From IMG/VR virus record IMGVR_UViG_3300045988_154248: 64,000 nt of DNA; one strand, written 5' to 3'. Made by a program: the position numbers and the translations under genes. The notes under the pieces were generated by a model. It had not been told where the DNA came from, did no database searches, and was given only the letters and a program-made list of their open reading frames with translations. Positions within the stretch are counted from its first letter, which is position 1. Every line of letters starts with the position of its first letter. This stretch comes from a virus. Shown here piece by piece: positions 9,856-55,075 of the stretch.

Positions 9856-9865
9856 GGTGAAGTCA

Positions 9866-12096: not shown

Positions 12097-12131
12097 GAAG
12101 GGAGTGATCTACTATTACTTCCTATACAAGA

Positions 12132-13316: not shown

Positions 13317-13504
13317 TGGAGAATACAATTATGGGAGAAATTGACGAAAATCCAGTGTTGGATTATGACGAACTTAATTCATACATTCAAGGTCGAACTG
13401 GTTTAGATTATGACACGGTAGCTAATGTACTGGATCTTGAAACAGAATACATGATCAAAGTAGGAATTATTGAATCACAAAATCCTGCTGAAGTAGAAAA
13501 ATAA
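13316..13504 (+). CDS. hypothetical protein
   Basis: 62-aa ORF whose start overlaps the upstream stop. Confidence 0.4.
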   Translation: MENTIMGEIDENPVLDYDELNSYIQGRTGLDYDTVANVLDLETEYMIKVGIIESQNPAEVEK

Positions 13505-13522
13505 GTACAGATACATCTGTAC

Positions 13523-13960
13523 TTACATATAAAGAAGGCCATCGGCTACCTAAAATTTCTTTCTTTATGTTGCTATACAACAAATGTACAAACTCGTGGA
13601 AGCCGATGATCAAAAATACAGAAGAAGGACTGACGGCTATCTCGATTTCTAGAAGTGAACTTTATCAGAGAATTCAATCCTGTCATCAGGATGCAGGTAT
13701 CATAACCTAACGGTTACGTTCGTGCCGCCAATACTGTCTCACTCGTTCCCATTTATTATAACGGAAACGTGAGTAGCTATTGACATACACTGGTGTTTCT
13801 GGTGAATAAAACATCGCCATACTAAATCACCTGCCTTCCGTTGATAAACTTTCTATCATTGGAAAAACCGGCAGTCCAAGAATACGGAAGATGCTCCGTA
13901 CTTATAAAGAATAACATATTATAAAAAATTAGACAAGCACTTCATAAGTGCAAAATTTAT
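13523..13960 (+). other. ~430-nt non-coding, hairpin-rich region (possible ncRNA/regulatory; strand unknown)
   Basis: No ORF and more G+C than the flanks. Stems include CATCGGCT..AGCCGATG, ATCCTG-tcat-CAGGAT, ACGGA-agatgc-TCCGT and the palindrome GCACTT-cat-AAGTGC just before hup. Confidence 0.3.
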
Positions 13961-13984
13961 TTGAACAAAAAGGAGAATATTAAA

Positions 13985-14260
13985 ATGATGAACAAACAAG
14001 ATATTTTTAAAACCGTAGCAGCAAACCTAGAAGTAACCCAGAAAGATGCAGCAAAATATGTAGATGCTGTTTTCGTTACCATCAAAGATGCAATGGCTGA
14101 TGGAGAATCTGTAAATATCGCAGGATTTGGAAAATTCGAGGTTGTAGAAAAGGCAGAATCTAAGAGACGTAATCCTCAGACTGGTGAAACAATTATGGTT
14201 GCTGCTCATAAAGCACCGAAATTCAAGGCAGCTACTGCTCTTAAAGAGGCTGTTCTCTAA
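13985..14260 (+). CDS. hup: HU/IHF-family DNA-binding protein
   Basis: MNKQDIFKTVA...GFGKFEVVEKAESKRRNPQTGETIMVAAHKAPKFKA is the canonical HU signature. ATG follows AAAGGAG. Confidence 0.85.
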   Translation: MMNKQDIFKTVAANLEVTQKDAAKYVDAVFVTIKDAMADGESVNIAGFGKFEVVEKAESKRRNPQTGETIMVAAHKAPKFKAATALKEAVL

Positions 14261-14278
14261 TAGATCGGTGGTGATTAT

Positions 14279-14845
14279 ATGCATACACTGAAATGCAAAA
14301 GTATTGAAGAATTAGTCGAAGTAGTTGTCGAGACTTATGAGCTACTACATGATTGTGATCGAAACGTAAGTTTTGTTGCTAAGTATGATCATGCAAAAGA
14401 AATTTTGAGAGAATTGGTATTTTACGATTATGATCTAAAATTTGTTGAGTTAGCAGATCCTGAGTGGGATAACTATGAAGACGAATATGTTATCAGTATT
14501 GTGTGTGATGAAATATTTTGCGAGAAGCTAAAATTGGACGGAAGATATTGTATACTATCTCCAAAATTTGTATTTTTTGATGAAAATGCAAATTCTAAAT
14601 GCGTTAAATATTTTGAGTCGGATATGAAATATGAATTTGAAATCACGGAAGAAGAATCTAGTGGTGACTCTGATCAGGAGTTGAATTGTCATGACGATTC
14701 TATGGATGTAGATTTCTCTGATGATGGACATGGATTTACATGTAGCAAGCATGATAAGAATGGATATAGTTCTATTTCATATTGGTCATCTGAACAGGTT
14801 GATAAGGATCGTTTATCTGAGATTTTGAAAAGTTTTTATTTATAA
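14279..14845 (+). CDS. hypothetical acidic protein
   Basis: 188-aa ORF; no motif recognised. Confidence 0.45.
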   Translation: MHTLKCKSIEELVEVVVETYELLHDCDRNVSFVAKYDHAKEILRELVFYDYDLKFVELADPEWDNYEDEYVISIVCDEIFCEKLKLDGRYCILSPKFVFFDENANSKCVKYFESDMKYEFEITEEESSGDSDQELNCHDDSMDVDFSDDGHGFTCSKHDKNGYSSISYWSSEQVDKDRLSEILKSFYL

Positions 14846-14887
14846 TTTTGTTGAGTGTGTAAGACTGCAGCTTACGCACTCAACTAC

Positions 14888-14959
14888 AGGTCGTTAGTGT
14901 AATTGGCAACACGGCAGTCTCCAAAACTGTTAATCAGGGTTCGAATCCCTGGCTTCCTG
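14888..14959 (+). tRNA. tRNA-Trp-like (anticodon CCA) with degenerate acceptor stem
   Basis: Good D arm (GTGT/ACAC), anticodon arm (GCAGT-CTCCAAA-ACTGT) and T arm (CAGGG-TTCGAAT-CCCTG). The acceptor stem has two internal mismatches (T:T, C:T). Confidence 0.5.
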
Positions 14960-15222
14960 TTTGCAATTTTCTGCAAACGAGCGCAGAGAATAAATGATTA
15001 GAGACGGGTGGATAACCTGGTTTCTATCTTTCATACCAATATTTATGATTCGTTATTTTATGTGAGGTGATTACACCTCTCATTCATGAGATCTTTCTCG
15101 CTTTACGAGATGATTGTTGCCGCAGTCATCTCACATAAGATAACGACGGAAGTTATCGGCAAATAACTATAAATATTAAAAATGGCGAACGCTGCCATAG
15201 TGCGAGAAAGTGGAAAAAGTAT

Positions 15223-15939
15223 ATGAGTGATATTATTAAATTTGACTATGATAAACAAACAGTATCTGCAAGAGATTTGTTCGATGCAGTAAACGAAGGA
15301 AAAGAAAGATTTAGTAAGTGGTTTGCGAGGCAGTTACAATTTGGGTTTGAAATTGGAATTGATTATTCCAACCCGTACCAAAAAGTACGGGTTCAAAAAG
15401 AAGGCAAACGTACTGTTGAACGTGAAGTTGAAGATTATGACCTTTCTATAGATATGGCAAAACATATCTGTATGGTTCAGAAGACGGAAAAAGCAAAACA
15501 AGTTCGTCAGCGTTTAATTGAATTAGAAAATGCATGGAACACACCAGAGCAGGTAATGGCTCGTGCTTTAAAGTTTGCTGATAAAACCATTTCTGACTTA
15601 AAGCATCAAATCGAGGAACAACAGCCAAAAGTAGAATATCATGATGCGGTCCTTAATAAGAAAGGATTGATTACTACTACAGTTGTAGCAAAGGATCTTG
15701 GTTATAGAAGTGCTCAAAAACTTAATGAGATTATGAATCTTAATCATATTATTTTTAAGAATCAATCTGGAACATGGTGTCCATATGCTGAATATGAATG
15801 GCTAATTATAGAAGGATATGCAGATTATCAGAGTTATACTGCAAAGAATGCTGCTCCATGTCTGAAATGGACTGAAAAAGGTAGAAAATGGATCATCGAA
15901 AATTATGATCAGTGGGTAAAGAATATTACTGCAGCATAA
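15223..15939 (+). CDS. antirepressor (AntA/ORF6N N-terminal + KilAC C-terminal domain)
   Basis: SARDLFDAV..ERFSKWFARQLQFGFEIGIDY (AntA-like), and LITTTVVAKDLGYRSAQKLNEIM in the C-terminal half (KilAC-like). Confidence 0.65.
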   Translation: MSDIIKFDYDKQTVSARDLFDAVNEGKERFSKWFARQLQFGFEIGIDYSNPYQKVRVQKEGKRTVEREVEDYDLSIDMAKHICMVQKTEKAKQVRQRLIELENAWNTPEQVMARALKFADKTISDLKHQIEEQQPKVEYHDAVLNKKGLITTTVVAKDLGYRSAQKLNEIMNLNHIIFKNQSGTWCPYAEYEWLIIEGYADYQSYTAKNAAPCLKWTEKGRKWIIENYDQWVKNITAA

Positions 15940-19010: not shown

Positions 19011-19013
19011 TAT

Positions 19014-19097
19014 GGGCAGATGTGCTTAGTGGCGATAGCAGTGGGCCGTAACCCCACCACATTAGAAACACCGTAGGTTCGACTCCTACTCTGCTCA
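19014..19097 (+). tRNA. tRNA-Tyr (anticodon GTA), long variable arm
   Basis: Acceptor GGGCAGA/TCTGCTC, anticodon stem GTGGG/CCCAC with loop CCGTAAC, T arm GTAGG-TTCGACT-CCTAC. Confidence 0.85.
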
Positions 19098-19107
19098 TTT
19101 TTGTTTT

Positions 19108-19197
19108 GGAGCTTTACTCAAGTTGGATGAAGAGATCAGTCCTGAAAACTGACAGGCCGTTAACAACGGCGCGTGGGTTCGAATCCTACAGGCTCCG
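19108..19197 (+). tRNA. tRNA-Ser (anticodon TGA), long variable arm
   Basis: Acceptor GGAGCTT/AGGCTCC, anticodon stem TCAGT/ACTGA with loop CCTGAAA, variable stem GCCGTT/AACGGC, T arm GTGGG-TTCGAAT-CCTAC. Confidence 0.85.
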
Positions 19198-19232
19198 TAT
19201 ATAATTAGTGAATGGAGGCAGTGCCTCCGTAT

Positions 19233-19315
19233 GCCGGTATGGTGGAATTGGTAGACACATCTGGTTTAAGCCCAGATTGCTATGAGCAGTGCGAGTTCGA
19301 GTCTCGCTGCCGGTA
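19233..19315 (+). tRNA. tRNA-Leu (anticodon TAA), long variable arm
   Basis: GCCGGTATGGTGGAATTGGTAGACAC 5' half, anticodon stem TCTGG/CCAGA with loop TTTAAGC, T arm GCGAG-TTCGAGT-CTCGC. Confidence 0.8.
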
Positions 19316-19343
19316 TTATTTTTTGTAAAAAGGAGACATACAT

Positions 19344-39877: not shown

Positions 39878-42718
39878 ATGCCAAAACAACATACAATTAA
39901 CCTCGAAGCTGTTATAAAAGCTGCACTGGATAAAAATAGCGAAAAAATAATCGATGATTTTGAGAAGAAAATCACTGAACCAAAAGAGATTAATATCAAA
40001 ACAGATAAAGCATCTAAACAGGTTAAGAAGCTGTCTGATGAGATTGAAAAAGAACAAAAGAAACATACTCAAACGTCTAGAAAAAGAAATAAAACTAAAA
40101 CAGCTACTGAACAAAGTACTCCAAAAAACGCAGATAAGTATGTACAATCAACAATATATGATAAAAAAGGACGTCCATCTACTTCTCATTCGTATACGTA
40201 TGCTGATGGAAAACAACAATCTTATAACAAGAATGGTAAGTTAACATCTGAGAAGCAGACCGTTGTTGATCTTCAAAAAGCATATTCTCAGTTAAATAAA
40301 GACGTAACAGAATATTATTCATTAAAGACAAAAGAAGCAAAAGGCAAAGTAGCCACAGAGGATAAACAGTATGTTAAAGGTCGGATTTCTGATTTAGTTA
40401 ATGAAATGTCTGCAAACCGAAAATATATTGCAGATGTAAAAAAGCAAGGTTTTTACAATGATGAATTGGAGCAAAAAGCTTTTAATCATTTTCGTAGAAA
40501 AGCTAATGGCTACAACACGTATGTCGATGAGAAAAATGCTACAATCAAAGCTTATGGAAATGATGACAATACTGCTATTCGTCAGGGACAGCGTTCGAAA
40601 CAACTAAGTAATTATGCTGGACAATCCACAGATGCAATTGAAAGAGCAAGAACGCTTGATACAACTATAACAGGTTTGGAAAAAGAATTATCAAACCTTG
40701 TTTCTTCTGGCGCATCAATGGATCAAATTAAGTCAAAATTTGATGAATGCACTTCTGCTGGTAAAGAATTTAAAAATGTCATGACCCTAGTCAATAGCAC
40801 TATGGAGAAAACATCTAAAAAAGATACCGTTGTTGGAGATTCAAATGCCGCAAAGCTTCAAAATGCCATTGATAAAAAAGTAGCTCAAGCAAAAACACTT
40901 GTATCAGATAGTTCTATAAAACAATTTGACGCAAAAATTGAAAAGATTAAATCTCAGTACGCTGGACAAGATGGTTCTGCAGACGTTTTATCATCTTTAG
41001 AAAAAACAGTGAATACCATACATGACAAACAGGCTAGTATAAAAGCAGAATTAGCAAAAGGATCTTCTGGAAATTTAACACAAATTGCTTCGGATGCTGA
41101 TATTTTGAATGCAAAGCTTAATGAAGTTGAAACTACCGCGAAAACGCTTGGAACTTCACTTTCAAAAAATCTAGATGGTACCACACTTCAGAGAACTATT
41201 GATAAAATTGATAATCTTGTAAAAAATTCCGACGGTTTTGCAAGCAAATCGCAATTAGAAAAATTAAAAACTCTACGAGATTCTTATACTAATAGTGATT
41301 CTGGAATTACAAAAGCTGTCAACTATGATAATTCTAAAATTATTTCTGGCATCGAGCAGGAAATTAATGCTCGTAAAAAATTAGCAGAAGCTCAGAAAGA
41401 ATTGCAAACTGGTACATATTCTGCGAATGAAGCCAATTATAAAAATGCTCTTTCCAAATATGAAGGGCAAACTTCTGAATCTCTAACTCGTGCAAGAGAA
41501 AGTTTAAAACAATTCAAAGAGATCCGTGAAGACTTTGAAAAGTCTATGAAAGACATTAAGGTTTCTGATCTTAGTGACGAAGAGTTTGAACGTTTAAGTA
41601 AGAATCTTCAGAATATGACTGAAGAGGAAGAAAAATATAAGACAGCGATGAAACAGGTCAAGGCAGAGGAAACTGCTACTCTAGCACCTGGTGTCGCCCT
41701 TCGTGCGTCAAACGAGATGCAGTCTTATATTAACAACAACAGCAAGGCATGGAAGAAATATAAGGCACAACTCGAAGAAGTTCGTGATGCCTATAAAAAT
41801 GTAACAACAGAAGGACAAAAGTTAGAAGTTGACGCTAAAGCTAGGGATTTGAAAGCAAAAATTTCTGCTGATGGATTAACAGGTGCAAGTTTTTGGCAAG
41901 ATACAAAACGTGCTGTTAATCAAATTGCTCAATTCACTGGAATTTACGGCATGTTGCAGAATGTCGTTATGGAAATTCCATCAAAGGTTGTTTCTAATGT
42001 AAAGGAAATTAATGATGCTCAAATTGAATTAGCAAAAGTTGCAAGTGATGCATCGGAGAGTCAATTAAGTCAGTACTGGGATAAGGCTGCTGAAAGTGCC
42101 AAGAAATATGGTGCTACAGTTAGTGATGTAATTAGCAGTACTGCGGATTGGAAACGTCTCGGAGCTTCTCTTGATGACGCAAAAGAATTGTCTGACATGA
42201 CTACTCTTCTGCAACGTGTCGGAGATAACATGACCCAGGAAACATCCTCTTCTGGTCTAATTAGTGCATTGAAAGGTTTTCAACTAAAAGCAGATCAAGC
42301 ACAACATATCGTAGATGTGGCAAATGAGGTAGCCAATACGCAGCCTATTGATACAGCAGGTATTTTTGAAGCAATTGAAAGATCTGCATCATCTCTAAAA
42401 GCCGCTGGCAATACGTATGAACAGGGTGTTGCGCTTGCCAGTGCAGCGAATAGTGTAATTCAAAATCCGGAAAAAATCGGGACAGCACTAAAAACGATCT
42501 CAATGCGCATAAGAAGCGCCGAAACAGATCTTGAAGAAGCCGGTCTTGACACTGAAGGAATGGTAACTTCTACTGCCAAGCTTCGAAAAGAAATGCTTGC
42601 ACTTAGTGGCGTAGATATTCTGAAAGACAAAGATACTTTTAAGTCTACTTATCAAATTCTTGATGAGTTAGCAAATAAATGGTCTGATTTAACAGACATC
42701 CAGCAGGCAGACTACACT
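39878..42718 (+). CDS. tail tape measure protein, exon 1 of 4 (3' boundary approximate, 42713-42729)
   Basis: Long alpha-helical, Ala/Lys/Ser-rich protein containing the conserved TMP core (...ILDELANKWSDLTDIQQA). The frame then runs into an intron-encoded tail and a stop at 42745. Confidence 0.7.
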
Positions 42719-43109
42719 TGCCTGTATGTACAGAAATGTGCATAAGAGAACACATCTAAAACCAGTAAAACCTAATGCTCTATCACTACAATATGGATGA
42801 AACATGCTGATATGAATGTAACGAAAGTAAAACAACGATAGAGATTCTATATGGTCAAAAGCCTAAGTAGAAATTTTGCTAATTATTTTAAATTAGAAAT
42901 GGTAGCTTGGTCGCAAAGTCCCGAATAGGGATGTGTCAAACGAGTACCCCAACGTCAGGGGGGAGAAATCCTTAATGTAGGGCTTAATCGCTAAATGAAG
43001 TCTGAAATGGTGTGACTGCTATTATTCTTAAGATGAATAATGTGGTTAAAAAGTACTCTGATCTTATATGCGAGTATAAGAATTATTATTGAAAAGAGAA
43101 TTTTATTTT

Positions 43110-43286
43110 ATGAAAAAATTTGATAAAGAATACAGTACTCAATACGTACCTGAGATGAAATATCTTCAATCAAAAGGTATTGAATATTCTTTTGTAAAAG
43201 ATATTCAAGGAGTGACGACATATAAATATACGAAGACACCAGAGTTATTTTTGGCTTTGGTGTCTTTTTATATGGAGAATAAATAA
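43110..43286 (+). CDS. small protein (58 aa), near-identical paralog of 8158-8337
   Basis: MKKFDKEYSTQYVPEMKYLQSKGIEYSFVKDIQGVTTYKYTKTPELFLALVSFYMENK. Part of the 210-bp repeat. Confidence 0.5.
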   Translation: MKKFDKEYSTQYVPEMKYLQSKGIEYSFVKDIQGVTTYKYTKTPELFLALVSFYMENK

Positions 43287-43322
43287 AAATACGAAAGGAT
43301 AAATAATAGGTGATAAATAATG
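43113..43322 (+). repeat. 210-bp direct repeat, copy B (1 mismatch to 8164-8373)
   Basis: Read directly; the single difference is gagaat vs gaaaat near the small-ORF stop. Confidence 0.9.
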
Positions 43323-44687
43323 GCAAGACAAAAATATACATATGAACAAGTTTACAATGAATTTGACAAAAGAGGTTATGATTTAGTATCAGAAGAATAC
43401 CATAACGTTTCTGAACATCTGGAATATATCTGCAGAAAACATAAAGACAAAGGTATCCAGAAGATAACATTTTCAAAACTTCATTCAGTGAATAGAGGTT
43501 GTTATTATTGTGGTAGAGAACGAACTGAAAATGCGCATGTGAAAGAATTAGATCCTGAATATGACAAACAATTGTGTGAATCGAAAAATTTTACATATAT
43601 TGGATCGAGAAAAGAAAATCATATTTTTGTTATTGATTTTATTTGTAATAATCATAAAGATCTTGGGATTCAGTCTATGCGTCGCAATAATATGAAAAGG
43701 CAAATTAAAGGATGTCAGTATTGTTCAGGGAAAAATTTACCAGAATGGTATATTATGAAAAAGAAAGATGAAGTAAATCCAAATATTATATTAATTGATC
43801 CATATAAAAACATGACTACAAGAATGAAATGTCTTTGCAAGAAACATAATTTTTTGCATAATAAAACCATGCAGGAAATTTTAGGTGGAAAAGGTTGCTA
43901 TTATTGTGGTCTTGAAAAACTAAGTAAACAAATGTTTTTGTCAGATGATCAAGTCAATGAAAATATTCATAAGAAAAATCCACATGTTGATGTTATAAAA
44001 TATAATGGCGCAGATATTATTTCTGAATGGTACTGTAATAAGCACCAAAAATCATTCAGTAAGTGCTATGTTACTTTGCTTTATTGTGATAGTGGATGCG
44101 ATGAATGTTATAAAGAATTAATTAGAGATAGATATGGTTTGGGTCAGTTAGAGTTTAAGAAAAAAATAAAAGAAATTCATCCAACATTACAAGTTATAGG
44201 CAAATATATAAATAATACCACTCCAGTAGATTTATATTGTCAAAAACATGATTGTTATTTTTCAACAGATCCATCTTCTGCATACAAAAGATTATCTTGT
44301 TGTCCTAAATCTAGAGTCACTTATAAAGAAGAATATGTATGTAGTTTGTTAGAAAAATGGGGTTATTCTATTACTAGACAAAAGAAATTTGATGACTGTA
44401 AGGATAAAAACGTTCTTCCGTTTGATTGTTATTTAAATGATTTTAATGTATTGGTGGAATATGATGGAGAAGGGCATTACAAACCTGTAATGTTTGGAGA
44501 AGAATCCTATGAAGAAGCCGTAGAAAAATTTCATTATACGCAAAAACATGATCAAATGAAGAATGAATATTGTGAAGTAAATAATATTCCTCTTATTAGA
44601 ATTCCTTATTATGAGTTCGATGATGTAGAATATTATCTATATGATAATTTATGTAAACTTGGTGTTATAGAAGAAAATTTTCAATAA
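43320..44687 (+). CDS. intron-encoded endonuclease: five tandem zinc-finger modules + Vsr-like/PD-(D/E)XK (EDxHD-type) C-terminal nuclease domain
   Basis: Five repeats of C..(K/N)H...(~15-20 aa)...C..C (e.g. YICRKHKDKGIQ..GCYYCG; FICNNHKDLGIQ..GCQYCSG). C-terminus VLPFDCYL..NVLVEYDGEGHYKP....QKHDQMKNEYC..NIPLIRIPY resembles Vsr/DUF559-type nucleases as in I-Bth0305I-like enzymes. Confidence 0.6.
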   Translation: MARQKYTYEQVYNEFDKRGYDLVSEEYHNVSEHLEYICRKHKDKGIQKITFSKLHSVNRGCYYCGRERTENAHVKELDPEYDKQLCESKNFTYIGSRKENHIFVIDFICNNHKDLGIQSMRRNNMKRQIKGCQYCSGKNLPEWYIMKKKDEVNPNIILIDPYKNMTTRMKCLCKKHNFLHNKTMQEILGGKGCYYCGLEKLSKQMFLSDDQVNENIHKKNPHVDVIKYNGADIISEWYCNKHQKSFSKCYVTLLYCDSGCDECYKELIRDRYGLGQLEFKKKIKEIHPTLQVIGKYINNTTPVDLYCQKHDCYFSTDPSSAYKRLSCCPKSRVTYKEEYVCSLLEKWGYSITRQKKFDDCKDKNVLPFDCYLNDFNVLVEYDGEGHYKPVMFGEESYEEAVEKFHYTQKHDQMKNEYCEVNNIPLIRIPYYEFDDVEYYLYDNLCKLGVIEENFQ

Positions 44688-44747
44688 TAATTGGTATAGC
44701 TTTAAGCGAGGGCTATATTAACAAAAGAAATATGAAGTGTAACTGAG

Positions 44748-45083
44748 TTGATCGCCGGTAAAAATCAAGGCAATGTAATGAGCGCCCTTATGAGCCAGTA
44801 CGATATTGCTCGTCAAGCGCTTAATACTGCTATGAATGATTCCGAAGGCTCCGCCGAAAGGGAATTAACTAATTACCAAAAGGGTATCGATTACAGTCTT
44901 GAAAGATTCAAGGCTACATTTCAAGAATTTTCAACTTCTGTTCTATCATCAGACACTTTCAAGGCTGTCATAGATAGCGGAACACAATTCTTAGAAATTC
45001 TTACTAAAATTACTGAAACACTTGGGCCACTTGGCACAGCTTTAACAGCACTTGGTGGTTTCAAATTTATATCAAGCATAGGT
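44748..45083 (+). CDS. tail tape measure protein, exon 2 of 4
   Basis: LIAGKNQGNVMSALMSQYD... continues the TMP core. Ends ...GGFKFISSIG (GGT 45081-45083) immediately before TAG. Confidence 0.65.
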
Positions 45084-45571
45084 TAGCCAAAATCCTGGCT
45101 ATAGTTTATCGTAAACTGGCTTATCAATGCGGAGAATATCATAGCAATGGAATGATATTTCAACGTAGGGAGATTAGTGCTTGTAAAAAATAAATAGAGG
45201 ATTAATTCGTCGAATTCGCTATTCTGCAATAATGCAGTGAAATGGATGAAAATTCCGCGAGAACGCACGAGCCAACCTGACTACGTATAGTAATATGTGA
45301 AACGTTAGCAGCAATTATGGAATTAAAGATAATATCATAATGACGAGCGAAACATATGAAAGTTAGGAGGAGTAGAGAGAACACCCTTCCTCCAGCGTAT
45401 ATAATGCCATAGTTTATATGCGTTGAATGCATGTTCCACGGTACGCGAAAGTTGTGATGCTTTCTCATCACACGCCAGCTTCTATCCTATTTCTGGCGTT
45501 GTTGGAAAATAATAGGAAAATTATATAGATATTTATCGTCAAATTACAATAACAATGGGGGATGTGAAAGT

Positions 45572-45688
45572 ATGGGATCTAAATCTAAATTAGTATTTGA
45601 AACATTAGAATCTGATCCAGATGGTATTATTGATGCAAGCGAGCAAATATTAAATGTTCAAGGTACTCAGTTTTTACCGTTTACCTGA
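45572..45688 (+). CDS. 38-aa ORF (putative)
   Basis: GGGGGATGTGAAAGT then ATG: MGSKSKLVFETLESDPDGIIDASEQILNVQGTQFLPFT. Followed by the hairpin GAGGAGAGT..ACTCTCCTC. Confidence 0.25.
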   Translation: MGSKSKLVFETLESDPDGIIDASEQILNVQGTQFLPFT

Positions 45689-45758
45689 AATGTGCCAGTA
45701 AACATTGCATTGAGGAGAGTATGGAAATACAACTTCCCAGCACTCTCCTCTTCCACTT

Positions 45759-45857
45759 CTATAACATTTTCAACAAAAATGCCACAAAGAATAACAACGC
45801 TATCGCCCACCAGGGCCATGGCTGCATACTTCTTCTGACTCTACCTTTCCATGACAT
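45759..45857 (-). CDS. 32-aa hydrophobic peptide (putative), last gene of the antisense operon
   Basis: MSWKGRVRRSMQPWPWWAIALLFFVAFLLKML. Lies downstream (- strand) of conserved-element copy 1. Confidence 0.2.
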   Translation of the reverse strand: MSWKGRVRRSMQPWPWWAIALLFFVAFLLKML

Positions 45858-45896
45858 ATCTTTTATTTTTTCCTTTGTCTAAAAATAAGTTTTAAT

Positions 45897-45939
45897 GAAA
45901 GCAGGTGATTATTATCAATATTCAGCAAACAGCAAACAA
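45897..45939 (+). repeat. conserved 37-nt element, copy 1 (with 6-nt in-frame insertion)
   Basis: GAAAGCAGGTGATTATTATCAAT[attcag]CAAACAGCAAACAA. Contains the GTG start of ORF 45905. Confidence 0.85.
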
Positions 45940-46228
45940 GATAGAAACAAGAATTGTGTCTTCAGATAAATTAAATTCACAAAATATGTCATATGTATAT
46001 ATTGATTCAGATAATCAAATATATGTACGAGAAGGAATACTGCAGAATGATATTGATATATTATCTGCTGTATTAATGCAAAGAAAAGTCGATAGTCGTA
46101 TTAAAAAAACATATTTTGATATTGTAGACTCATTGAAAACGAATCAAGTATCTAAAAATCAATTTGAGTCTCTATATAAGATGGTTCTTGTAAAATATTA
46201 TGGTAAGAATGAAGAAAGTACATTGTAG
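45905..46228 (+). CDS. hypothetical 107-aa protein, convergent partner of protease 1
   Basis: GTG start inside the conserved element. N-terminus MIIINIQQTANK. The 3' end overlaps the protease gene by 31 nt. Confidence 0.4.
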   Translation: MIIINIQQTANKIETRIVSSDKLNSQNMSYVYIDSDNQIYVREGILQNDIDILSAVLMQRKVDSRIKKTYFDIVDSLKTNQVSKNQFESLYKMVLVKYYGKNEESTL

Positions 46229-46866
46229 TTTTCGCATTCTCCAAGACCAACTTCTTTTTCTTTATATGAATAGCTTGATTGTTCAATCCCTACTAAATAA
46301 TATTGGCTATCACGATTAATAAATATCGGTGATCCGCTTGATCCACTAAAGCATTCCATATCCACAAGGAAACGTTCCAATCCATTAAATTTTGATTTTA
46401 GAGGTGTCGCAATAACGCCACTTCGAATAAGTGGAGTGATAAAATTATCAGACTGAAATGATAACGGATATCCAATCATTAACGCATATTCAATTGAAGA
46501 TATTGGAAAATCTTCCGTTATAATATCTTCTTTTGTAATCCAAGATATTTTTAGCTTTCCTACATATTCTGGTGAATCGATTAGATCATTTATTCCAATT
46601 ACTGCAACGTCATATTGTGGATGTAAATATGGTTGGATACGTATTTCATTGTTTAGAAGATTCACTTGATCGTTTTGCTCAATAGGGACAGAAAACAAAG
46701 CGTTTTTCATATTCTCAAATATATGCCTATTCGAGACTAATGCATAATTTTCTCGATTATTTGCATGGTATTTATAGAAAAATCCTGTACCAATTTTACA
46801 TTCATCATTTTCTTTTAATACAGTAATTTTTGTTACAGTATGAATCAAATTCTCTTTTGTAAGCAT
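46198..46866 (-). CDS. trypsin-like (S1/chymotrypsin-fold) serine protease 1
   Basis: Catalytic triad context: VSNRHIF (His), YDVAVIGI (Asp), FSGSSGSPIF (Ser). RBS TAAGGAGAAG on the - strand. No signal peptide. Confidence 0.7.
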   Translation of the reverse strand: MLTKENLIHTVTKITVLKENDECKIGTGFFYKYHANNRENYALVSNRHIFENMKNALFSVPIEQNDQVNLLNNEIRIQPYLHPQYDVAVIGINDLIDSPEYVGKLKISWITKEDIITEDFPISSIEYALMIGYPLSFQSDNFITPLIRSGVIATPLKSKFNGLERFLVDMECFSGSSGSPIFINRDSQYYLVGIEQSSYSYKEKEVGLGECENYNVLSSFLP

Positions 46867-46886
46867 ATTTTACTTCTCCTTAATTA

Positions 46887-46923
46887 GAAAGCAGGTGATT
46901 ATTATCAATCAAACAGCAAACAA
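46887..46923 (+). repeat. conserved 37-nt element, copy 2
   Basis: GAAAGCAGGTGATTATTATCAATCAAACAGCAAACAA. Contains the GTG start of ORF 46895. Confidence 0.85.
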
Positions 46924-47236
46924 AACAGATCATCAGGAATCTATACAAACAATACACACAATAGAATTAACCACTAATGAGTATAATACAATCAAATATT
47001 TTTTTGAAAATATGGAGTCTTTATATAACTATGGACTGATTGATAAGGAAATTGTCCCATATAAAATTTTCTCCAATGCAAAAAATCATTTTATGAAAAA
47101 GCCAAAAATTACAATTACTAATTTAAAAATGACAAAAGCTTCAGATACTATTACTCATCTAGTTTGTGGTGATCAAAGTGTTAAATCTGTTTATCAAATA
47201 GCTACTTCTCCGTCACAAGAGGATATTGTTCTCTAA
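46895..47236 (+). CDS. hypothetical 113-aa protein, convergent partner of protease 2
   Basis: GTG start inside the conserved element. N-terminus MIIINQTANK. The 3' end overlaps the protease gene by 35 nt. Confidence 0.4.
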   Translation: MIIINQTANKTDHQESIQTIHTIELTTNEYNTIKYFFENMESLYNYGLIDKEIVPYKIFSNAKNHFMKKPKITITNLKMTKASDTITHLVCGDQSVKSVYQIATSPSQEDIVL

Positions 47237-47936
47237 TAAAATCAAGTATATAAAACGCATATACTTCCTGAGAAAGACCAAGACTTTCTTCATACTTCTT
47301 TTCAAATTCGTCTGTAGTAATTTTAAGAGAACGTATTTTAGCAGAATGATGTATGCCAAGTAGTTTGTATTTTTCATTAACTTTGATATAAACTGGGCAT
47401 CCACTTAAACCTTCTTTGGTATTGGCATAAGTGAAGAATCCGTTTTGAAAGTTGAACTGAATAGATGATGCAGTATTTCCTTTAATAATAAAAGGATACG
47501 CTAAGATTGTGTACCCTAATGCTGCTTGATAGCCAACGAGATAGACATCTTCCAAATCATTAAAACTTGATCTGTCATCATTTAAAATAATGTCTGATTC
47601 TTCTATAAAATGAAAAATTATATTGTATTTATTCAAGGCCTTGATTATTGTATTTGTTATATCGACATAGGCGATATCAAGAGAAGGATGTTTTATAGGA
47701 GAGACAGTTATATTAAAAGTTATACCTGACATTTCTTCGTTTTCGTCTATAGTGGATATAACAAAAGATATATTCATAATATTTTTGTCAAAACAATGAC
47801 CGCAAGAACAAAGGAAATATGATTCTCCTTGAGATGTTGCTAATTTTATGATAAAACCAGTAAAAGAGTGTCTTGGTTCTTCAGTATTATCAGCAATAAA
47901 TACTGTTGTATATTTCAAGTCATTTACACTAATCAT
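47202..47936 (-). CDS. trypsin-like serine protease 2 (diverged paralog)
   Basis: SCGHCF (His), LDIAYVDI (Asp), EGLSGCPVY (GxSGxP Ser). RBS AGAGAGGAAAA. Follows the zinc-ribbon gene by 33 nt. Confidence 0.6.
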   Translation of the reverse strand: MISVNDLKYTTVFIADNTEEPRHSFTGFIIKLATSQGESYFLCSCGHCFDKNIMNISFVISTIDENEEMSGITFNITVSPIKHPSLDIAYVDITNTIIKALNKYNIIFHFIEESDIILNDDRSSFNDLEDVYLVGYQAALGYTILAYPFIIKGNTASSIQFNFQNGFFTYANTKEGLSGCPVYIKVNEKYKLLGIHHSAKIRSLKITTDEFEKKYEESLGLSQEVYAFYILDFIREQYPLVTEK

Positions 47937-47969
47937 ATCAATTTTCCTCTCTTATGTTTTATGGTTATC

Positions 47970-48533
47970 TTAAAAATCATACCCACAATTCTTACAGTGA
48001 AATTGTTTGCCGATTTTCTCTGATGCAATGCCAAACATATTTGTAGACAGCATACGTTTGAATATACCGATTTTCTCGATATTTGTAGATTGACACACTG
48101 GACAGTGAGGTTGGTTGGCAGATGTTGGATTTTGATAGTTGTTCTTTTCTCTATATTGTTTTAACCGCTCTTCTTCTTCATGACGTCTTTTGTTATATGC
48201 ATTCTCATCAAATTGATTTTCCACATTAAGATCTTTTAGGTCATTAAGAATGCTTTCTTTGTCACACCCGTGATGATTTAACAAATCTACCATTTCATAC
48301 TTAGTTTGTATAAATGGAACGCGACAATATTTACAGTTAACTCTTCTACAATGACCAGCATAATTAATTTCATGAACCCCACATCTCGGACAGATAAAAC
48401 CTCTAGTAAAATCATTAATATTATTTTCTTCTAGATATTTTTTGATTGGTCGTCCACAATGAGGACAAGTTTCAGCATAGATGCTAACTTCTCTATCACA
48501 ATCTGGGCAATATATCAAATTTTGAAATCCCAT
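47970..48533 (-). CDS. multi-zinc-ribbon protein
   Basis: Start at the internal Met (GGAGG then 7 nt then ATG on the - strand). Four CxxC pairs: CPDCD..CPHCG, CPRCG..CKYC, CPVCQ..CKNCG. - strand promoter-like TATAAT/TGATATAAT motifs at 48560-48610. Confidence 0.55.
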   Translation of the reverse strand: MGFQNLIYCPDCDREVSIYAETCPHCGRPIKKYLEENNINDFTRGFICPRCGVHEINYAGHCRRVNCKYCRVPFIQTKYEMVDLLNHHGCDKESILNDLKDLNVENQFDENAYNKRRHEEEERLKQYREKNNYQNPTSANQPHCPVCQSTNIEKIGIFKRMLSTNMFGIASEKIGKQFHCKNCGYDF

Positions 48534-48620
48534 ATTACATCCTCCAATGCACATTAAATTAATTACATTATATCATAATTATTATATAAATCCAACATTA
48601 TACAATAATTTTATTCGCAG

Positions 48621-51600
48621 TTAAAAAATTTAGGTGATTTATTTGGTAGTTTTGGAGAATTAAACTTACTGAGAAATAAATATGGAAAAAACGCAACATT
48701 TGATACATTAAGCAGTACACTACAACAGTCTTTTAACGAGTCTTTTAAAGTTGGGAAAAATGGAATTAGTGAATTTTCCACAGAGCAAATTAAAACTAAA
48801 GCATCTGTAATGGGATTAAATGATGCGTTGACAAAACAAGCATTATCTCTTGCGAATGACGCTGGTTTATATCAAAAAGCTGCGGCAGGTAATCTTACAT
48901 TTAGTAAGGCTATAGAATTAAATATAAATAATGCAAGCGATTTAGTTGATGCCTTGATGAGTAGTAATTCTGAAGTCTTAAAAAAATATAAAGATAACGA
49001 TATTGCTGATATGATAGCTAATTCAGGTGAAAAAGGCAGCGCGGCATATAATGAGTTTGTTAAAGATCTCATCGATAAAAATCAAGATTTAGGGGACTCA
49101 ATCGTTGAATTAGCACCCAAAGTAGAAACTACAAAATCCGCATTTTCTGGTTTATCAAACTATTTTAAAGGACTTTTTGCTACATTTACAAATCCGATTT
49201 TCCTTTTAACGACAGCCGTTACCGTAGGGGTTGCGGCATGGCAAGGCTATAACCAATCTGTCCAGGAATCCATCCAGCACACGAAAGACTCAATAGCAGA
49301 AATAGAGGAACGTAATAAGTCTATTGACGACAATATCAGTAAAGCACAGGAACTAAGGGATTCCCTTGATTCCGGTACTCTTACAGAGCAAGAAGCTTAT
49401 AACACGAAGAGTCAATTGCTTGATATCCAAAGTCAATTATCTGATTCTTATGGAGAACAGGCGGATGGAATTGATCTGGTAAATGGTAAGCTGGATGAGC
49501 AGATCGAGAAGATGCAGCAGCTCAAAGTTGAAAATGCGAAAAGCTGGCTGAATGATTCGGATAATGAGAAGAATTACGAAAAAGCTAAGAAGAAGATGAC
49601 CAAAGATGATTATGAGTCATTCTTTGGAAATACACCTACTTTATCTTTACTTGGTAATGCACCAGAAAAAGCCGACTATACAAATTCAGACGTATATAAA
49701 GATGCACTGAAACGTTATCAAAATAGCAAATCCCAGATCGAAGAAATCCAGAAAGCAGCAGAAAAAGCCGGACTAAAACAGTATACAAGTACAAGCACAG
49801 GTCAGTTCCAGCTTGGTTTTGAAAATGAAACAGTAACAGGAGCAGATGAAAAATTAAACTCCTTCCTCGCTACTGTTAAAGAACTGAAACGGCAGTTTGA
49901 TGATGAGGGTAAAAATACTGATTACTTTGATAATATCATCAGTTCCGCCGAAGATGCCGAATCTTCTTATAAGGATATTTTAGACAAGCATCAAGAAGTA
50001 TATCAAGAGTATCTGAAAAACTCCATGCTTGCAGAGGGTTATGGTAATAATAAGCCAGCCACAGTATACCAGCAATATGCGGATGCTGTAGATAAATATA
50101 ATGAAGCCCTGCAAAGTGGAGATACATCTAAGGTCGAAGCAGCGAAAACTGCATTAGATGGCGTAAAAGATTCCGTAGATAATATTGTCAGTAGAGATTC
50201 CGGAAAAAAATACAAGGAACTGTTTGATGAGATTGCAGATGGTATTGACACAGCATCCGAAAAAACTTATGAGTTCAAAGAACGCTTATCCGGTAAAGGT
50301 ACAGATAAATTAAACAATACTGTGCTTTCTAAGCTCAAAGAGTTGAAGAATTACACAGATATTGACCTCAAGAGTATCAATCTTGATACAAGTGATGTTG
50401 TTGCTGGTAAAGATGCTCTACGCATGGCAGTAAACGAAGCAATGGATCTTGACATTGTTTCCGATGATTCTGCTGAAAGTGTGGCAAAAGTTGTTGATCT
50501 CTTAACGGATATGGGTATGACGGCAACCGTATCCATGAATCAAGTGGATGATTCCTTCTCAGAAGTCAATACTACCATTCAGCAAGCACAAGCAAATCTG
50601 GAAACGCTCAAGACGATTATGTCTGAATCTGTTTCGGGAGCAGGTATTTCTGCCGATAATGTGAAAGCATTTAAAGAAATGTTCGGAGATGATGCTGCGC
50701 GTGCTTTGGAGAAAACCGCAGACGGTTACCATATCAATCGTGAAGAGCTTGCAAAATTACAGGCGCAACAGTCAGAAATGAACAAAGCGGATTATCTTTC
50801 CGGTTTGGCAGATCAGCAGGAAGCTCTGAGACAAATCGAGGAGCAGATCGCCGATGCAATGGTAAAAGGTCAAGATGTCAGCGGCTTACAGGCACAGCGC
50901 GAAGGTATTTTGGATAATATTTCCTCTCTGGAGGATCTAGCATATCAGTATCAAACTGCTACTTCTGCTTATCAACAATGGCAGGATGCTATGTCCGGTG
51001 GTGAAGAAGGTAATATGTATGATTCCATCCAGGGTAACATGGAATCCATCAAAGATCTCTACGACAAAGGACTTGTGGGAGAAAACAAATTCCGAGAGTT
51101 TGTTGACCTTATGTCCAATAAGGATCTGACCAATGCCAGTGTGGATGAAATCGTTGCGGCTTATGAAGAATCCTATCCGAAGATGGAACGTTATTTTACA
51201 GAAGGACAGGAAGGATGTCAAGCATTCTTACAAGATATATCCAACCTTAATTCTGAATGGGCGCACATGAATGAAGATGGTTCATGGGAGATTAATTTCG
51301 GAGTCGGAAACGATCAAGAGATTGCGGATGCATTAGGAATTGATGTGGAAGCTGTACAATCAGTACTAAGAAAACTGCATGATTTTGGCTTTGACATCGA
51401 CCTCGATCAGCCGGTTAAATCTTTGGAACAACTAAAGACAGAAGCTCAATCAGCCAAAGAAGCTCTTGATGGAATGGGTGAAACTTCTCTTGATAGCATC
51501 AATTTGGACACAGATTCATTCAGTGAAATCACAGATGATATTGACAAGGTTAAGGAATATATTCAGCAGATCAATGATGCTGATTTGGAGCCAGAAGTTC

Positions 51601-54487
51601 GGACAGAGAGACTGGAGCAAGCCAATAATATTCTTGATTATCTGGTACAGAAACAGCAAGAGGCTGGACATACAGATATTATCATTGATGCGGATGCAAG
51701 TTCTGTCGATCAAAAGATCTCTGATCTGAAGAGTCAACTGGAGCAATTCAGAAACGAAGACGGTACGATTCCTGTTAATGCCGATACACAAGATGCTGTC
51801 AACAGTCTGCAATCTTTGTATGCTACGAAGCAAAATCTTGAAAATACACCAGCTATTCTACAGGTTGATACTTCGCAGGTTGACGGAGAACTGGGCAATG
51901 CGATCGGAAAATTACAGGAATATCAGAATGCTGTAGAGATTCTGAATGCACAGAACACGATGAAAACACAGGGCATCGACATTGATACCACAGATGCACA
52001 GCAGAAAGTACAACAGTTGGCAGGACAGCTACAGAATCTTGATGCTGATACGACAGCAAAGTTAGGTCTTGACGATACTGATTTTCAGTCGAAACTTTCT
52101 AATATTGCTACTCATCCGATTGATGTAGGAATAGGGGTAAATCTTGATCCGAATGCTCTTGCCGACGTCTCTGCAAAGATTTCTGGAATTACGCCAGAAT
52201 TACTTGTAAAAGCTGGTGTAAACGAAGAGGCGATTGTAAATTATACGCCGAAAGATAAGGACGCTACGGTCAAATACAAAGTTGACCATAGTGCGATTGA
52301 CAGTTATGATCCGGAAGACAAAAATGCTACGGTTACTTACGGTGTGGTTGTTTCTGGACTTGAAAATCTACCAGGTAATAAAACAAGAAGTCTGACTTAC
52401 AATATTAAGACTAATGGTACGGCTCCAAAAGTAAATGGTACGGCACATGCTATAGGAACAGCTCATGCGGCAGGTACTGCAAGCCGTAATTGGGGGCTTG
52501 CTCACAATGAACCACATGCGCTTGTAAATGAATTGAAACCAGAAGCAATCGTTCGGGATGGTAAGGCGTTTATCTTGAATGGCGGAGATCCTACTTTTGC
52601 AAATCTGAAGAAAGATGATGTTGTATTCAACGGTGATCAGACGGAGCAGTTGCTTGAACATGGTTATGTTACCGGTTCTCATGCACAACTTGCAGGTGGT
52701 GGTTATTCTTTAGGTAGTGCGTTCTCTGGAGGATCGGGAAGATTTAATGTTGGAAGTTCTGGAACAAAAGCTGATTCTTCCACATGGGAAGACGAAAAGA
52801 AACAGAATAATACCAGCCCTAACTCATCTTCTGGTAGCAGTAGTCGTAAAAACAGTGGATCATCTTCTGGTGGTTCAACTCGATCACCTTCCGGTGGAAG
52901 TTCTGGTGGCTCTTCATCCTCTTCTGATGCAAAGTCAACAACAGAAGAAGTAGTTGATTTTATCAAAATTATGCTCTCCCGTCTGTCCCGTATGACAGAG
53001 CTTGCAACTAATGCAATCGAACGTGCAGTAGGTCTTGCAAATAAACAAGCAGCCGCAGCAGATGCAATCGGTAAAGCAACGAATGAAATGGTTCATAACC
53101 AACGTGCAGCAGATGCTTATTTGGCAAAAGCTAATAGCATTAGTTTGTCTGATGCTTATAAGAACCAGATCATGAATGGTAGTATTAATATAGATACCAT
53201 CACAGATGAAGATCTGAAAAAGAAAATTAGTGACTTCCAAAGCTATTATGAATCTTACTTATCTGCAAGAGACAATGCGTTAAAGCTCGAAGATAAAATT
53301 ACCGAACTCGCTGAAAAACGTCTGGAAATCATTGAAAAAGAATATGATGCGATCGTAGACATCAACGATGCGATAAAAACCGTAGCCGATTCCAAAATTT
53401 CTCTCAACGATGCGCTGGGCGTGGCGATTGACAATCCAGACAATTATGCTAATCTGAATAATTCAATCAAAGCACAGGAAGATACTTATAATCAGCTGAC
53501 GAAAAAGCTTTCCGATTATCAGAAAGAGATGGAGTCTCAACTTTCCAGCGGCTTGATGCAAAAGGGTTCTGATGCCTATAATTCTGCGCTAAAAAATATT
53601 CAAGATTTTACAGCTAAGATTTATGATGCTTCTACCAGCCTTCTTGAACTACGGGATAAATTGGATCAGATTAAAATTGATACTATCCAGAATGTAATTG
53701 ACGGAATCAAACGTAATTCGGATATTACGGAGAAATATATTTCTTACCTGCAATCTCAGAATCGTGATGTGCCAGAGAATCTATACACTGACCGTATAGA
53801 TAATAATAACGCTCAGGTACAGCAGAATCTAAAGCAGATGGAAATATACCGGAAGAAACAGGCGGTTCTTGATGTCAATTCTAAATCGTATCAAGATTAT
53901 GCAGAAAAGATTCAAACGCTAAAAGAAAATACTTTGGAACTGATTACGGACAATGAATCTCTTCAAGATAGTATCTATGAGCTACGATTTAAGCCACTTG
54001 ACGATGCTATCCAGAAGTACAGTGACCTTGAAGATGAGCTGAAAAGTTTCCGTGACCTTCTGAATGATGATGCATTCCTTGATAAGCAAGGACGTATCAC
54101 GGAAGATGGATTGGCACAGATTGCTCTCTTACAACAGAGTATTGGTACGGCAAAACAAAAAATTGCAGATTATACCACGGGCCTGCAAAAACTAAAAGAG
54201 TCTTATGACAATGGGGTTATTTCCTTAACGGAATATAATGACAAGTCAAAAGATTACCGTGAAGGTATTCAAGGTTCGATTGCAGATGTGAAATCATATC
54301 AGGACAGTCTGGTTGATCTGTATAAGAATGCTATGAGTACAGAGGTTGATTATCTAACCTCTATTGTAACGAAGAGACAAGAGGCGCTTCAAGCAAAAGC
54401 TGACTATTATTCCTATGATAAATCAATATCCAAAAAGAGCAATGATATTAATGTTATTAAAGCACAAATCATGGCTTTAGAAGGGGT
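48621..54487 (+). CDS. tail tape measure protein, exon 3 of 4 (5' boundary 48618 or 48621)
   Basis: ~1955 codons of helical TMP-like sequence, with the GTAHAIGTAHAAGTA..LVNELKPEAIVRDGKAFIL motif typical of Bacillota TMPs and a Ser/Gly-rich linker. Ends ...IMALEG-V at U 54487. Confidence 0.7.
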
Positions 54488-55075
54488 GAAATATTTGCTC
54501 CTATAAAATCTATTTAATTGCGGGAAGTCCCCATAAGGTTTAATTGGCTACAACGTAACCAGAAACGGTAGGCGTGAATGCGGTAGAGTTTTAAACTTAC
54601 AGTCCATTATTAGATAGAAACCATAAAAATAATTAAACTAGGGATAACCGAGTGTGCAAGTCACTCAGACGCAGCGAACTTCCTAAGTCAGAAATGATAT
54701 GGAAGACGTTCAGAGACTAACCCATATTGGGTGGCGCAATGCCTTAATGGAAGACTGCAAGCGATTGGCGGTCGAAAAAATATAGACTATTTGAATATTA
54801 AGTGATATTATAATTTTGAGGTGTGTTCTTTCCTATAATTAGTGATGAACAGATAGAACACAGTGTAGATACAACCAAAGAGACTCTCGAACACACATAT
54901 GAGAGAAGTAAGTAGAAGAAAAGACAACGAAATAGAACAATAAAGAAGATTGTGCAAGTTTGTAGAAGTTATACGAACCATCGTTCGCATGTTTGTGAAT
55001 TTTGCGAATAGATTTTTCTCTTGGGATTGCATATAATAAAGTCAAGAAAACCGTAAAGTTTTCTTATAATTAGTG

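Follow-up and report, generated by a model that had tools for sequence, protein, structure and literature searches.

A probable group I intron in a phage tape-measure gene with an exchangeable, mostly antisense accessory cargo that includes predicted serine proteases

Why would a phage keep a set of putative protease genes, read backwards, in the middle of one of its structural genes? The question is raised by a stretch of 64,000 nucleotides of viral DNA (IMG/VR record IMGVR_UViG_3300045988_154248; the whole stretch is hereafter called the window), in which the gene for the tape-measure protein (TMP) is split into pieces. The insertion studied here (insertion 2, window 45084-48617) separates the second piece from the third and had been described, in an original prediction made from the DNA letters and their open reading frames (ORFs), as a 3.5-kb insertion carrying an antisense operon of a zinc-ribbon protein and two trypsin-like proteases, each met head-on by a small sense ORF. 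The reading that we favour, with a probability of roughly 0.6, is that insertion 2 is an intervening sequence (most likely a group I intron) which carries a cargo of exchangeable accessory genes and has become fixed in the TMP gene. The features on which this reading draws are collected in Table 1.

Table 1. Positions of the features of insertion 2 and its borders in the window (a caret marks a junction).
Feature	Position	Strand	Remarks
Insertion 2 in TMP gene	45084..48617	+	3,534 nt; probable group I intron with cargo
Last six bases of exon 2, AUAGGU	45078..45083	+	Proposed 5′ strand of P1; 5′ splice site after U45083
Conserved non-coding 5′ block, candidate ribozyme core	45084..45521	+	438 nt; 93-100% identical in all relatives
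Candidate internal guide sequence, AACUG^GCUUAU	45114..45124	+	P10 part, then P1 part
Remnant (38 aa) of a 77-aa sense ORF	45572..45688	+	BLASTP to 77-aa ORFs of L003 and L004, 67% over 27 aa
32-aa basic, Trp-rich transmembrane peptide	45759..45857	-	MSWKGRVRRSMQPWPWWAIALLFFVAFLLKML; last gene of antisense operon
23-nt repeat, copy 1	45897..45919	+	GAAAGCAGGTGATTATTATCAAT; Shine-Dalgarno AGGTGAT plus start position
Sense ORF107	45905..46228	+	104 aa from ATC 45914; 80 aa (ORF80) from ATG 45986; 31-nt overlap with 3′ end of protease 1
Protease 1	46198..46866	-	Predicted 222-aa S1/PA-clan serine protease, H48/D86/S177
23-nt repeat, copy 2	46887..46909	+	GAAAGCAGGTGATTATTATCAAT; 21 nt from start codon of protease 1 (opposite strand)
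Sense ORF113	46895..47236	+	ATC at 46904; 35-nt overlap with 3′ end of protease 2
Protease 2	47202..47936	-	244-aa divergent paralogue, triad retained
Zinc-ribbon protein	47970..48533	-	187 aa; first gene of antisense operon
Sigma-70-type promoter-like site, extended -10	48567..48595	-	TTGGAT (48595-48590)-17 nt-TG-TATAAT (48572-48567)
Second promoter-like site	48624-48597	-	TTAACT-16-TATAAT
TMP exon 3	48618..54506	+	Frame open from 48609, 201 nt before first ATG; G^CAGTT kept in all relatives

In the ORF map the TMP gene lies in three plus-strand pieces (39878-42745, 44748-45086 and a frame open over 48609-54506), and when these are joined as exons the resulting chimera aligns by tblastn as a single piece, across both junctions, with TMPs from the Tsamsa-like phages of Bacillus and the 949-like phages of Lactococcus. 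In Tsamsa the TMP is encoded by one coding sequence of 9,372 nt, and in more distant relatives (P0185, P0188) GGFKLFKNLDLF is contiguous where the window has GGFKFISSIG^QLKNLGDLF; the related exon-2 proteins all end in ...SSIG, followed by TAG. By these alignments insertion 2 interrupts one TMP gene that is continuous in relatives, which bears out the predicted 3.5-kb insertion with its antisense cassette. Its span had first been drawn as 45084-48620; the 5′ end stands, and the 3′ boundary most likely falls at 48617^48618.

The same insertion occupies the same site in more than 30 related contigs, with its operon always antisense to TMP (Logan and ENA contigs L003-L013 and L030-L033, IMG/VR contigs L014-L024, and ten metagenome contigs); recurrence of the cassette outside the window, looked for by neighbourhood comparison, is thus a finding. 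What stays constant from one cassette to the next is only the 5′ block of 438 nt, together with some 65 nt at the 3′ end. The 5′ block adjoins the exon-2 stop codon and is more conserved than the coding flanks, and it is conserved even in L012, whose exon-2 protein is only 72% identical to that of the window. Its pairing potential is that expected of a group I guide. The last six bases of exon 2 pair with GCUUAU at 45119-45124, with a U45083-G45119 wobble at the splice site that is invariant in seven aligned sequences, and the adjacent AACUG (45114-45118) pairs with the beginning of the 3′ exon, CAGUU (48618-48622); a contiguous 11-nt P10 plus P1 guide pairing with both exons was matched in only 72 of 20,000 shuffles. 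The boundaries have the form U^...G^, the 5′ exon ending in U45083 and the insertion in G48617, and are conserved in the relatives, those whose exon 3 is too diverged for blastn included. Within the block, a GNRA-type loop varies at 45229-45232 (AUAA/GUAA/GCAA/GAAA), one compensatory change was seen (G45086-C45099 to A-U), wobble-compatible changes fall in a P2-like hairpin and in a candidate P7, and the latter (45276-82/45361-67, CCUGACU/AGU(U/C)AGG) resembles R/S elements. Some relatives have an ORF for a 332-aa phrog_30306 protein inserted just after the block. Taken together, this sequence evidence makes it probable that insertion 2 is a group I intron.

One further complementarity lies at the two ends of the insertion: UGUUGGA near the end of the 5′ block (45500-45506) is complementary to UCCAACA in the 3′ block (48592-48598). 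If formed, such a pairing might draw the far-off 3′ splice site towards the core; the bases at 48592-48598 also make up the -35 hexamer of the minus-strand promoter-like site.

Several results weigh against this identification. Searches of Rfam, which covered the 18-kb neighbourhood, the insertions one by one, three of the related loci and a control region in L006, returned no group I or group II match for insertion 2 at E values up to 10 (RF00028 for group I); this negative is weak either way, because RF00028 also missed the canonical-looking 311-nt intron in the L006 control region. At the candidate guanosine-binding pair in P7, five of the seven distinct sequences have G-U and the other two G-C. 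Covariation was not significant among seven near-identical sequences, its single compensatory pair being reached by 69 of 500 shuffles, in a test that was powerless because only copies of the intron core at least 97.9% identical were found: scans of IMG/VR and metagenomes for more diverged copies gave nothing else apart from chance matches, and no paralogue of the core occurs within the window or the related loci. A full canonical P3-P9 core could not be assembled from the helix list, with P3, P4 and P6 not consistently assignable, and the z-score of the minimum free energy is only -1.46. A search for an intron-less allele by its DNA junction pattern yielded one chance match and no such allele, and no protein spanning the spliced junction was found in a collection of 5.8 billion sequences. 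Hand-built group I models with several combinations of P3, P4, P6 and P7 were set aside, as none had the full topology, and only P1, P10, P2 and the candidate P7 are reported here. A group II intron was rejected as well: the insertion starts with UAGCC rather than GUGYG, its last 60 nt are AT-rich and contain no domain V-like hairpin, and there is neither an Rfam match nor a reverse transcriptase.

The start of exon 3 provides a further point against splicing and an argument for a reading without any intron, in which TMP would be made as two or more polypeptides, the island would be an ordinary intergenic moron island, and exon 3 would be translated from a TTG placed just before CAG. In all eight relatives in which the 3′ junction was read, TTG directly precedes exon 3 and is taken as the start by gene callers; an in-frame TAG closes exon 2, and the Rfam, covariation and allele results given above also fit a split gene. 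However, the window has TCG in place of this TTG and no start codon before 48810, and no variant has a Shine-Dalgarno motif upstream of exon 3, in contrast to 17 of 24 other genes in which a crude motif test found a Shine-Dalgarno-like sequence. A split gene also leaves aside the conservation of a non-coding block beyond that of its coding flanks, a guide pairing with both exons that is unlikely by chance, and the fact that homologous TMPs are single chains; we know of no established precedent for a TMP divided into two. We hold this reading to be unlikely.

Between flanks that are 95-99% identical, the cargo ranges from 2.6 to about 8.2 kb and comprises six or more different gene sets, and because the flanks are so alike while the content differs, the region is regarded as a hotspot for exchangeable accessory genes. 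The arrangement of the window recurs in L017, L023 and L031. The cassettes of L003 and L008 hold the zinc-ribbon protein and protease 1; those of L004, L005 and L007 have an HExxH protein (HELIH) in the slot of protease 2; L006 carries DUF5067 and three more zinc-ribbon proteins; L030 has a 40%-identical variant of protease 2 together with another HExxH protein; and the largest, that of L009 (about 8.2 kb), contains an HExxH protein, two zinc-ribbon proteins, DUF6864 and a HigB-like toxin with an HTH/ImmA-type partner. This content agrees with the earlier description of the cassette as accessory or conflict-like rather than a part of tail morphogenesis. The region as a whole found no match among GenBank phages by megablast and blastn, and a scan of GTDB for a host returned only a 39% relative, in a Clostridiales metagenome-assembled genome.

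The HExxH proteins that stand beside or replace serine proteases in the island slots are about 250 aa long and mutually dissimilar (L004 8616-9368, HELIH; L009 7835-8593, HELCH; L030 13603-14364, HEFTH), and none of the three matches a family in Pfam, PHROGs or PADLOC. Judged by its genes, the island is notably enriched in putative proteases.

The antisense operon appears to have its own promoter. The original prediction had pointed to promoter-like motifs on the minus strand, and two such sites are present; the TTGGAT/TATAAT site lies within the last 50 nt of the insertion, and both of its hexamers and its TG are kept in the otherwise diverged 3′ block of the L004 type. The first gene encodes the zinc-ribbon protein, for which the ORF (48554-47970) allows 194 aa and the likely start, ATG 48533 behind GGAGGA, gives the shorter form. 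Four CxxC pairs had been counted in it at first; there are six, which make three ribbons, with a helical linker and a very conserved C-terminal ribbon. Its AlphaFold2 model (pLDDT 82) found no fold match in a Foldseek-type structure search, and sequence matches to McsA and to zinc fingers were discarded, being probably matches of the cysteine pattern only. A zinc-ribbon homologue takes the first position in the complete cassettes examined. Another, 44% identical, is cargo of a Tn7-like transposon (TnsB/TniB/TniQ) assigned to Fusicatenibacter, which adds to the accessory character of the family.

In that transposon (L034 1727-9807, and L035; attributed to Fusicatenibacter saccharivorans), a 314-aa zinc-ribbon protein, convergent ORFs of 66 aa and DUF5067 occur together as they do in the phage island. 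To judge from these sequences, the set of zinc-ribbon gene, 66-aa ORF and DUF5067 moves between very different mobile elements.

The last gene of the operon, a 32-aa hydrophobic peptide that had been listed as merely possible, is conserved at 94-100% identity in 17 of the 18 listed loci, including L012 and L013, where the DNA is 85% identical, and it is disrupted only in L009. Four comparisons, which are not independent of one another, gave ten synonymous codon changes and one non-synonymous change. By these counts it is the best conserved gene of the cassette.

Both proteases are predicted to be chymotrypsin-type serine proteases with intact triads. The catalytic motifs picked out from the translations (NRHI, YDVAV and GSSGSP in protease 1; SCGHCF, LDIAYVD and GLSGCP in protease 2) align with H48, D86 and S177, which are invariant in an alignment of 71 sequences that includes both window proteins. 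Protease 1 matches Pfam Trypsin_2 (29.6 bits against a gathering cut-off of 27.6), phrog_7688 (9.6e-33) and PDC-S45, a candidate single-gene defence system in PADLOC (3.2e-40), and more weakly the protease effector domains of LmuA, RT-protease and Avs2 in PADLOC. Its AlphaFold2 model (pLDDT 93.2) has a chymotrypsin/HtrA-like fold that Foldseek relates to DegP, DegS and DegQ (probability 1.0, TM 0.60-0.67) and that also resembles viral trypsin-like and 3C proteases; among proteins of solved structure, the closest in sequence are the staphylococcal glutamyl endopeptidase and the Spl proteases. Protease 2 has no Pfam match, and its trypsin-like nature is read from its 27% identity to protease 1 and from its matches to PDC-S45 (7.6e-19) and phrog_7688 (6.8e-11). 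As had been noted before, no signal peptide is visible in either protein, and both are predicted to be cytoplasmic. Neither matches PDC-S45 over its full length: at 222 and 244 aa they are shorter than the bacterial members (270-300 aa) and cover only positions 17-215 of the 293 in the profile. Close relatives of protease 1 are confined to one phage clade, and tblastn against GenBank phages gave no match; the two bacterial homologues that were examined are prophage morons adjoining tail and lysis genes, in line with the conflict-like content of the island. Protease 2 is absent from L003 and L008. No experimental report on PDC-S45 was found, and the name appears in only one paper of the literature searched.

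The constancy of some of these genes suggests another function for the cassette, that of a minimal phage abortive-infection or exclusion system in which the zinc-ribbon protein would sense or regulate and the protease would be one effector, the 32-aa membrane peptide another, directed against competing phages and not against host defences. The zinc-ribbon protein, protease 1 and the peptide form the constant trio of the smallest cassettes (L003 and L008), the protease domain matches the effector domains of the PDC-S45, Lamassu LmuA, Avs2 and RT-protease systems, the bacterial homologues are morons as just described, and there are known defence systems in which a trypsin-like domain activates a toxic partner (bioRxiv 10.1101/2025.09.03.673762). 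On the other hand, the phage proteases are without the C-terminal ~75 residues of the PDC-S45 profile and are not accompanied by an MBL or any other known partner, the zinc-ribbon protein resembles no fold or family that would hint at sensing, the peptide is broken in L009, and nothing in the data separates defence from counter-defence or host takeover. Such a system is conceivable, though on the unlikely side.

The small sense ORFs were part of the original prediction, and their overlaps with the 3′ ends of the two protease genes are confirmed (31 and 35 nt). When the local sequence (26% G+C) was shuffled 5000 times, an open run at least as long arose in 7 trials for ORF107 and in none for ORF113; the two are therefore not chance ORFs. 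The two proteins are unrelated (BLASTP E = 22), and their N-terminal likeness is due to the exact 23-nt DNA repeat in which both begin. The start codon at the conserved position of this repeat is ATC in the window and ATG in relatives (...AGGTGATTATT-ATG in L009, L010 and L011). Since the element heads many unrelated sense ORFs across the loci, including ones with no link to a protease, it is read as a shared Shine-Dalgarno-plus-start element, with a weak start codon here. The repeat was also considered as a minus-strand promoter and dismissed for its poor -10; it fits a sense-strand Shine-Dalgarno sequence and start. A third sense ORF, of 77 aa, is intact in relatives and survives in the window as a remnant.

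From the overlaps the original prediction had gone on to propose two tandem modules, each consisting of a small sense ORF and an antisense protease. Under this proposal the ORF would encode an inhibitor, antitoxin or substrate of its protease, and the overlap would be a regulatory device. The case is best for ORF80/107, which accompanies protease 1 in every locus having that variant and each time overlaps it by 31 nt; L003-L008 have the 80-aa form unchanged, and its region is more conserved (5% nucleotide divergence) than protease 1 (16%). Diverged proteases in L009 and L012 (50% and 44% identical) are also followed by a convergent small ORF. However, the ORF80/107 pairing is conserved only among near-identical cassettes, its synonymous/non-synonymous pattern is not decisive, and an exhaustive search of 1.84 billion representatives found no relatives of ORF107 outside the clade. 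The ORFs behind the L009 and L012 proteases are unrelated to ORF80/107; no similarity was detected between the convergent ORFs that go with different protease variants, and in L009 there is no overlap. The homologue of ORF113 in L009 (10935-11267; 84% nucleotide identity) lies among other sense ORFs, far from a protease, and because it differs from ORF113 exactly in the C-terminal tail that overlaps protease 2 in the window, that overlap is read as a recombination joint. The same start element and convergent layout are found beside zinc-ribbon genes too, including those in the transposon. Tandem modules are thus not upheld, and their functional version appears distinctly improbable; a pairing of inhibitor and protease is possible for ORF80 and, as a general rule, without support.

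Under the intron reading, the observations could be connected as follows. In a clade of gut siphophages with genomes of ~100-130 kb, the intron would have become fixed in the TMP gene, with the 438-nt block acting as the ribozyme and recognizing a 3′ splice site kilobases away through the guide pairing with both exons. Splicing would join 45083^48618 (...TCAAGCATAGGT^CAGTTAAAAAA; in RNA, AUAGGU^CAGUUA) and restore a TMP of over 3,000 aa, as long as that of Tsamsa. The stretch from the core to the 3′ end would then serve as a safe harbour and hotspot in which accessory genes are exchanged among related phages, most of them antisense to TMP and driven by a host-type promoter at the 3′ end of the intron: here the zinc-ribbon protein, the two predicted PDC-S45-type serine proteases and the membrane peptide. 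A few small genes in the TMP sense, with the common 23-nt translation-start element, would be translated from the pre-mRNA or the excised intron. The antisense operon would behave as a moron, expressed in the absence of late transcription, whether soon after infection or in a lysogen; later, convergent late transcription of TMP would collide with it and supply kilobases of complementary intron RNA against it. The proteases may act on proteins of the host or of rival phages, in defence, counter-defence or takeover, since their family links point there, and the convergent overlaps would be by-products of module shuffling rather than inhibitor/protease units.

A bolder version would make the TMP intron a dedicated landing platform for conflict genes. 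Modules provided with the 23-nt element would be swapped by recombination, splicing would render the cargo harmless, and a mobile intron would spread it between diverged phages; antisense RNA from TMP, including that against the mRNA of the membrane peptide, would enforce an early/late or lysogenic/lytic switch, and the serine and HExxH proteases would form a diversifying arsenal against host defence or rival-phage proteins. We give this version only a small chance of being right.

How does such an element compare with those already described? Phage group I introns with homing endonuclease genes occur in T4 td, nrdB and nrdD, in Twort orf142 and in the SPO1 DNA polymerase gene. Insertion 2 shares with them the interruption of an essential phage gene, the U^...G^ boundaries with a guide, an ORF region looped out of the candidate core and the possibility of several introns per gene, the neighbouring insertion 1 having an HNH endonuclease. 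It differs in that no homing endonuclease is recognizable in the window's copy, and in that its place is taken by unrelated accessory genes (2.6-8.2 kb), the majority of them on the other strand. Morons and prophage accessory islands are alike in their autonomous promoter, their variable presence among close relatives, their location within the late structural region, often in reverse, and their conflict-type content (here the toxin-antitoxin pair, proteases and DUF5067), and the bacterial homologues of the protease are themselves such genes; but morons lie between genes, whereas this island lies inside one and would need RNA splicing to be harmless. With PDC-S45, LmuA, Avs2 and the Hachiman trypsin-MBL proteins, the phage proteases have in common the domain family and the intact triad, but not a fused sensor or an MBL partner.

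A further parallel is offered by the IStrons of Clostridia, in which a group I intron is fused to an IS200/605 or IS607 element (PMC10690162). Like the proposed intron, they have a compact 5′ ribozyme block followed by kilobases of cargo other than homing endonucleases and a 3′ splice site at the far end, so that splicing hides the insertion from the interrupted gene, and their hosts are likewise low-GC Firmicutes. Unlike them, insertion 2 has no tnpA, tnpB or omega-RNA, only a sub-threshold zinc-ribbon likeness to the TnpB TNB domain; most of the cargo is antisense and served by a separate promoter, the element is confined to a single site of a phage structural gene, and it does not match the Rfam group I model, as IStron introns are reported to do (PMC10690162). 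Precedents for antisense genes and for large gene cargo in a group I intron exist in eukaryotes, in nuclear ribosomal DNA introns with antisense homing endonuclease genes (PMC9548176) and in the giant mitochondrial ND5-717 intron with its embedded genes (PMC6545197). The antisense genes of the former are homing endonucleases and the mitochondrial cargo consists of sense-strand housekeeping genes, not of a variable accessory island. Our literature search found no description of a phage intron with a variable, mainly antisense accessory island; the kinds of element involved, an intron with cargo and a moron island, are known ones, in a location that is unusual for phage genes of this sort.

Should splicing be confirmed, insertion 2 would represent a phage group I intron with up to ~8 kb of exchangeable accessory genes, mostly oriented against the host gene, instead of a homing endonuclease. 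Self-splicing introns could then be viewed as safe harbours for morons and conflict genes within essential genes, and the IStron idea would extend to phage accessory genomes. The locus would also offer a natural system for the use of a distant 3′ splice site, and for the way in which convergent transcription and sense/antisense RNA shape the timing of accessory genes. The small cytoplasmic serine proteases (phrog_7688/PDC-S45-like) and the HExxH proteins that occur with them are flagged as candidate phage-borne effectors.

The TMP gene of this phage clade is an intron hotspot, and other insertions accompany the one discussed so far. Insertion 1 (window 42714-44739; junction gacT^...gtG^taact) is fixed at 42713^44740 because relatives without it read DIQRADLLETLAGK (P0146). 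It has a 5′ block of 376 nt, encodes an HNH-type homing endonuclease of 455 aa (phrog_559, 3e-51) and is closed by a 21-nt inverted repeat (43075/44678). Copies without the ORF are found in L003 and L006, and copies 75% identical at other TMP sites; it has no Rfam match, and a canonical P1 was looked for in it and not found. At the end of exon 3, window 54478-54810 gives a weak Rfam group I match (19.7 bits) with good P/Q/R/S-like elements, and a further TMP exon is probable in the window, because L003 and L006, which are without this element, have a longer continuous ORF. In L006 there are additional TMP insertions at 15322-15633, 12649-14478 and 11980-12523, the equivalent positions of the window (42331, 44760 and 44886) being uninterrupted; the ORF-less 311-nt insertion among those of L006 bears clear group I hallmarks (GAGGU^...GCCUC guide, GAGACUAC...AUAUAGUCC).

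Some features elsewhere in the window and in a relative may also be recorded. The same 22 bases, GATAAATAATAGGTGATAAATA, stand at 8349-8370 and 43298-43319, before the ATG of ORF 8371-9360 and of the homing endonuclease ORF of insertion 1 (43320-44687), which suggests by sequence likeness that ORF 8371-9360 is a second endonuclease paralogue with a shared start region. A 403-aa protein at 9758-10969 (+) matches phage 'transposase' families (phrog_506, 2.5e-141), which points to an element of the insertion-sequence type in the phage genome; the protein may be TnpB-like. A GOLLD RNA (Rfam RF02032, 193 bits, above the gathering score) occupies 6105-6562 (+), directly upstream of tRNA-Ile(TAT) at 6591-6665 (+), and the minus-strand ORF 6125-6496 that overlaps it is probably spurious. 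Four more tRNA genes, one for Trp at 14887-14960 and a Tyr-Ser-Leu cluster at 19013-19316, lie in gaps between plus-strand ORFs. In a related phage, L004, a drum RNA (Rfam RF02958, 71 bits, above the gathering score) is found at 1384-1490 (-), downstream of the TMP region.

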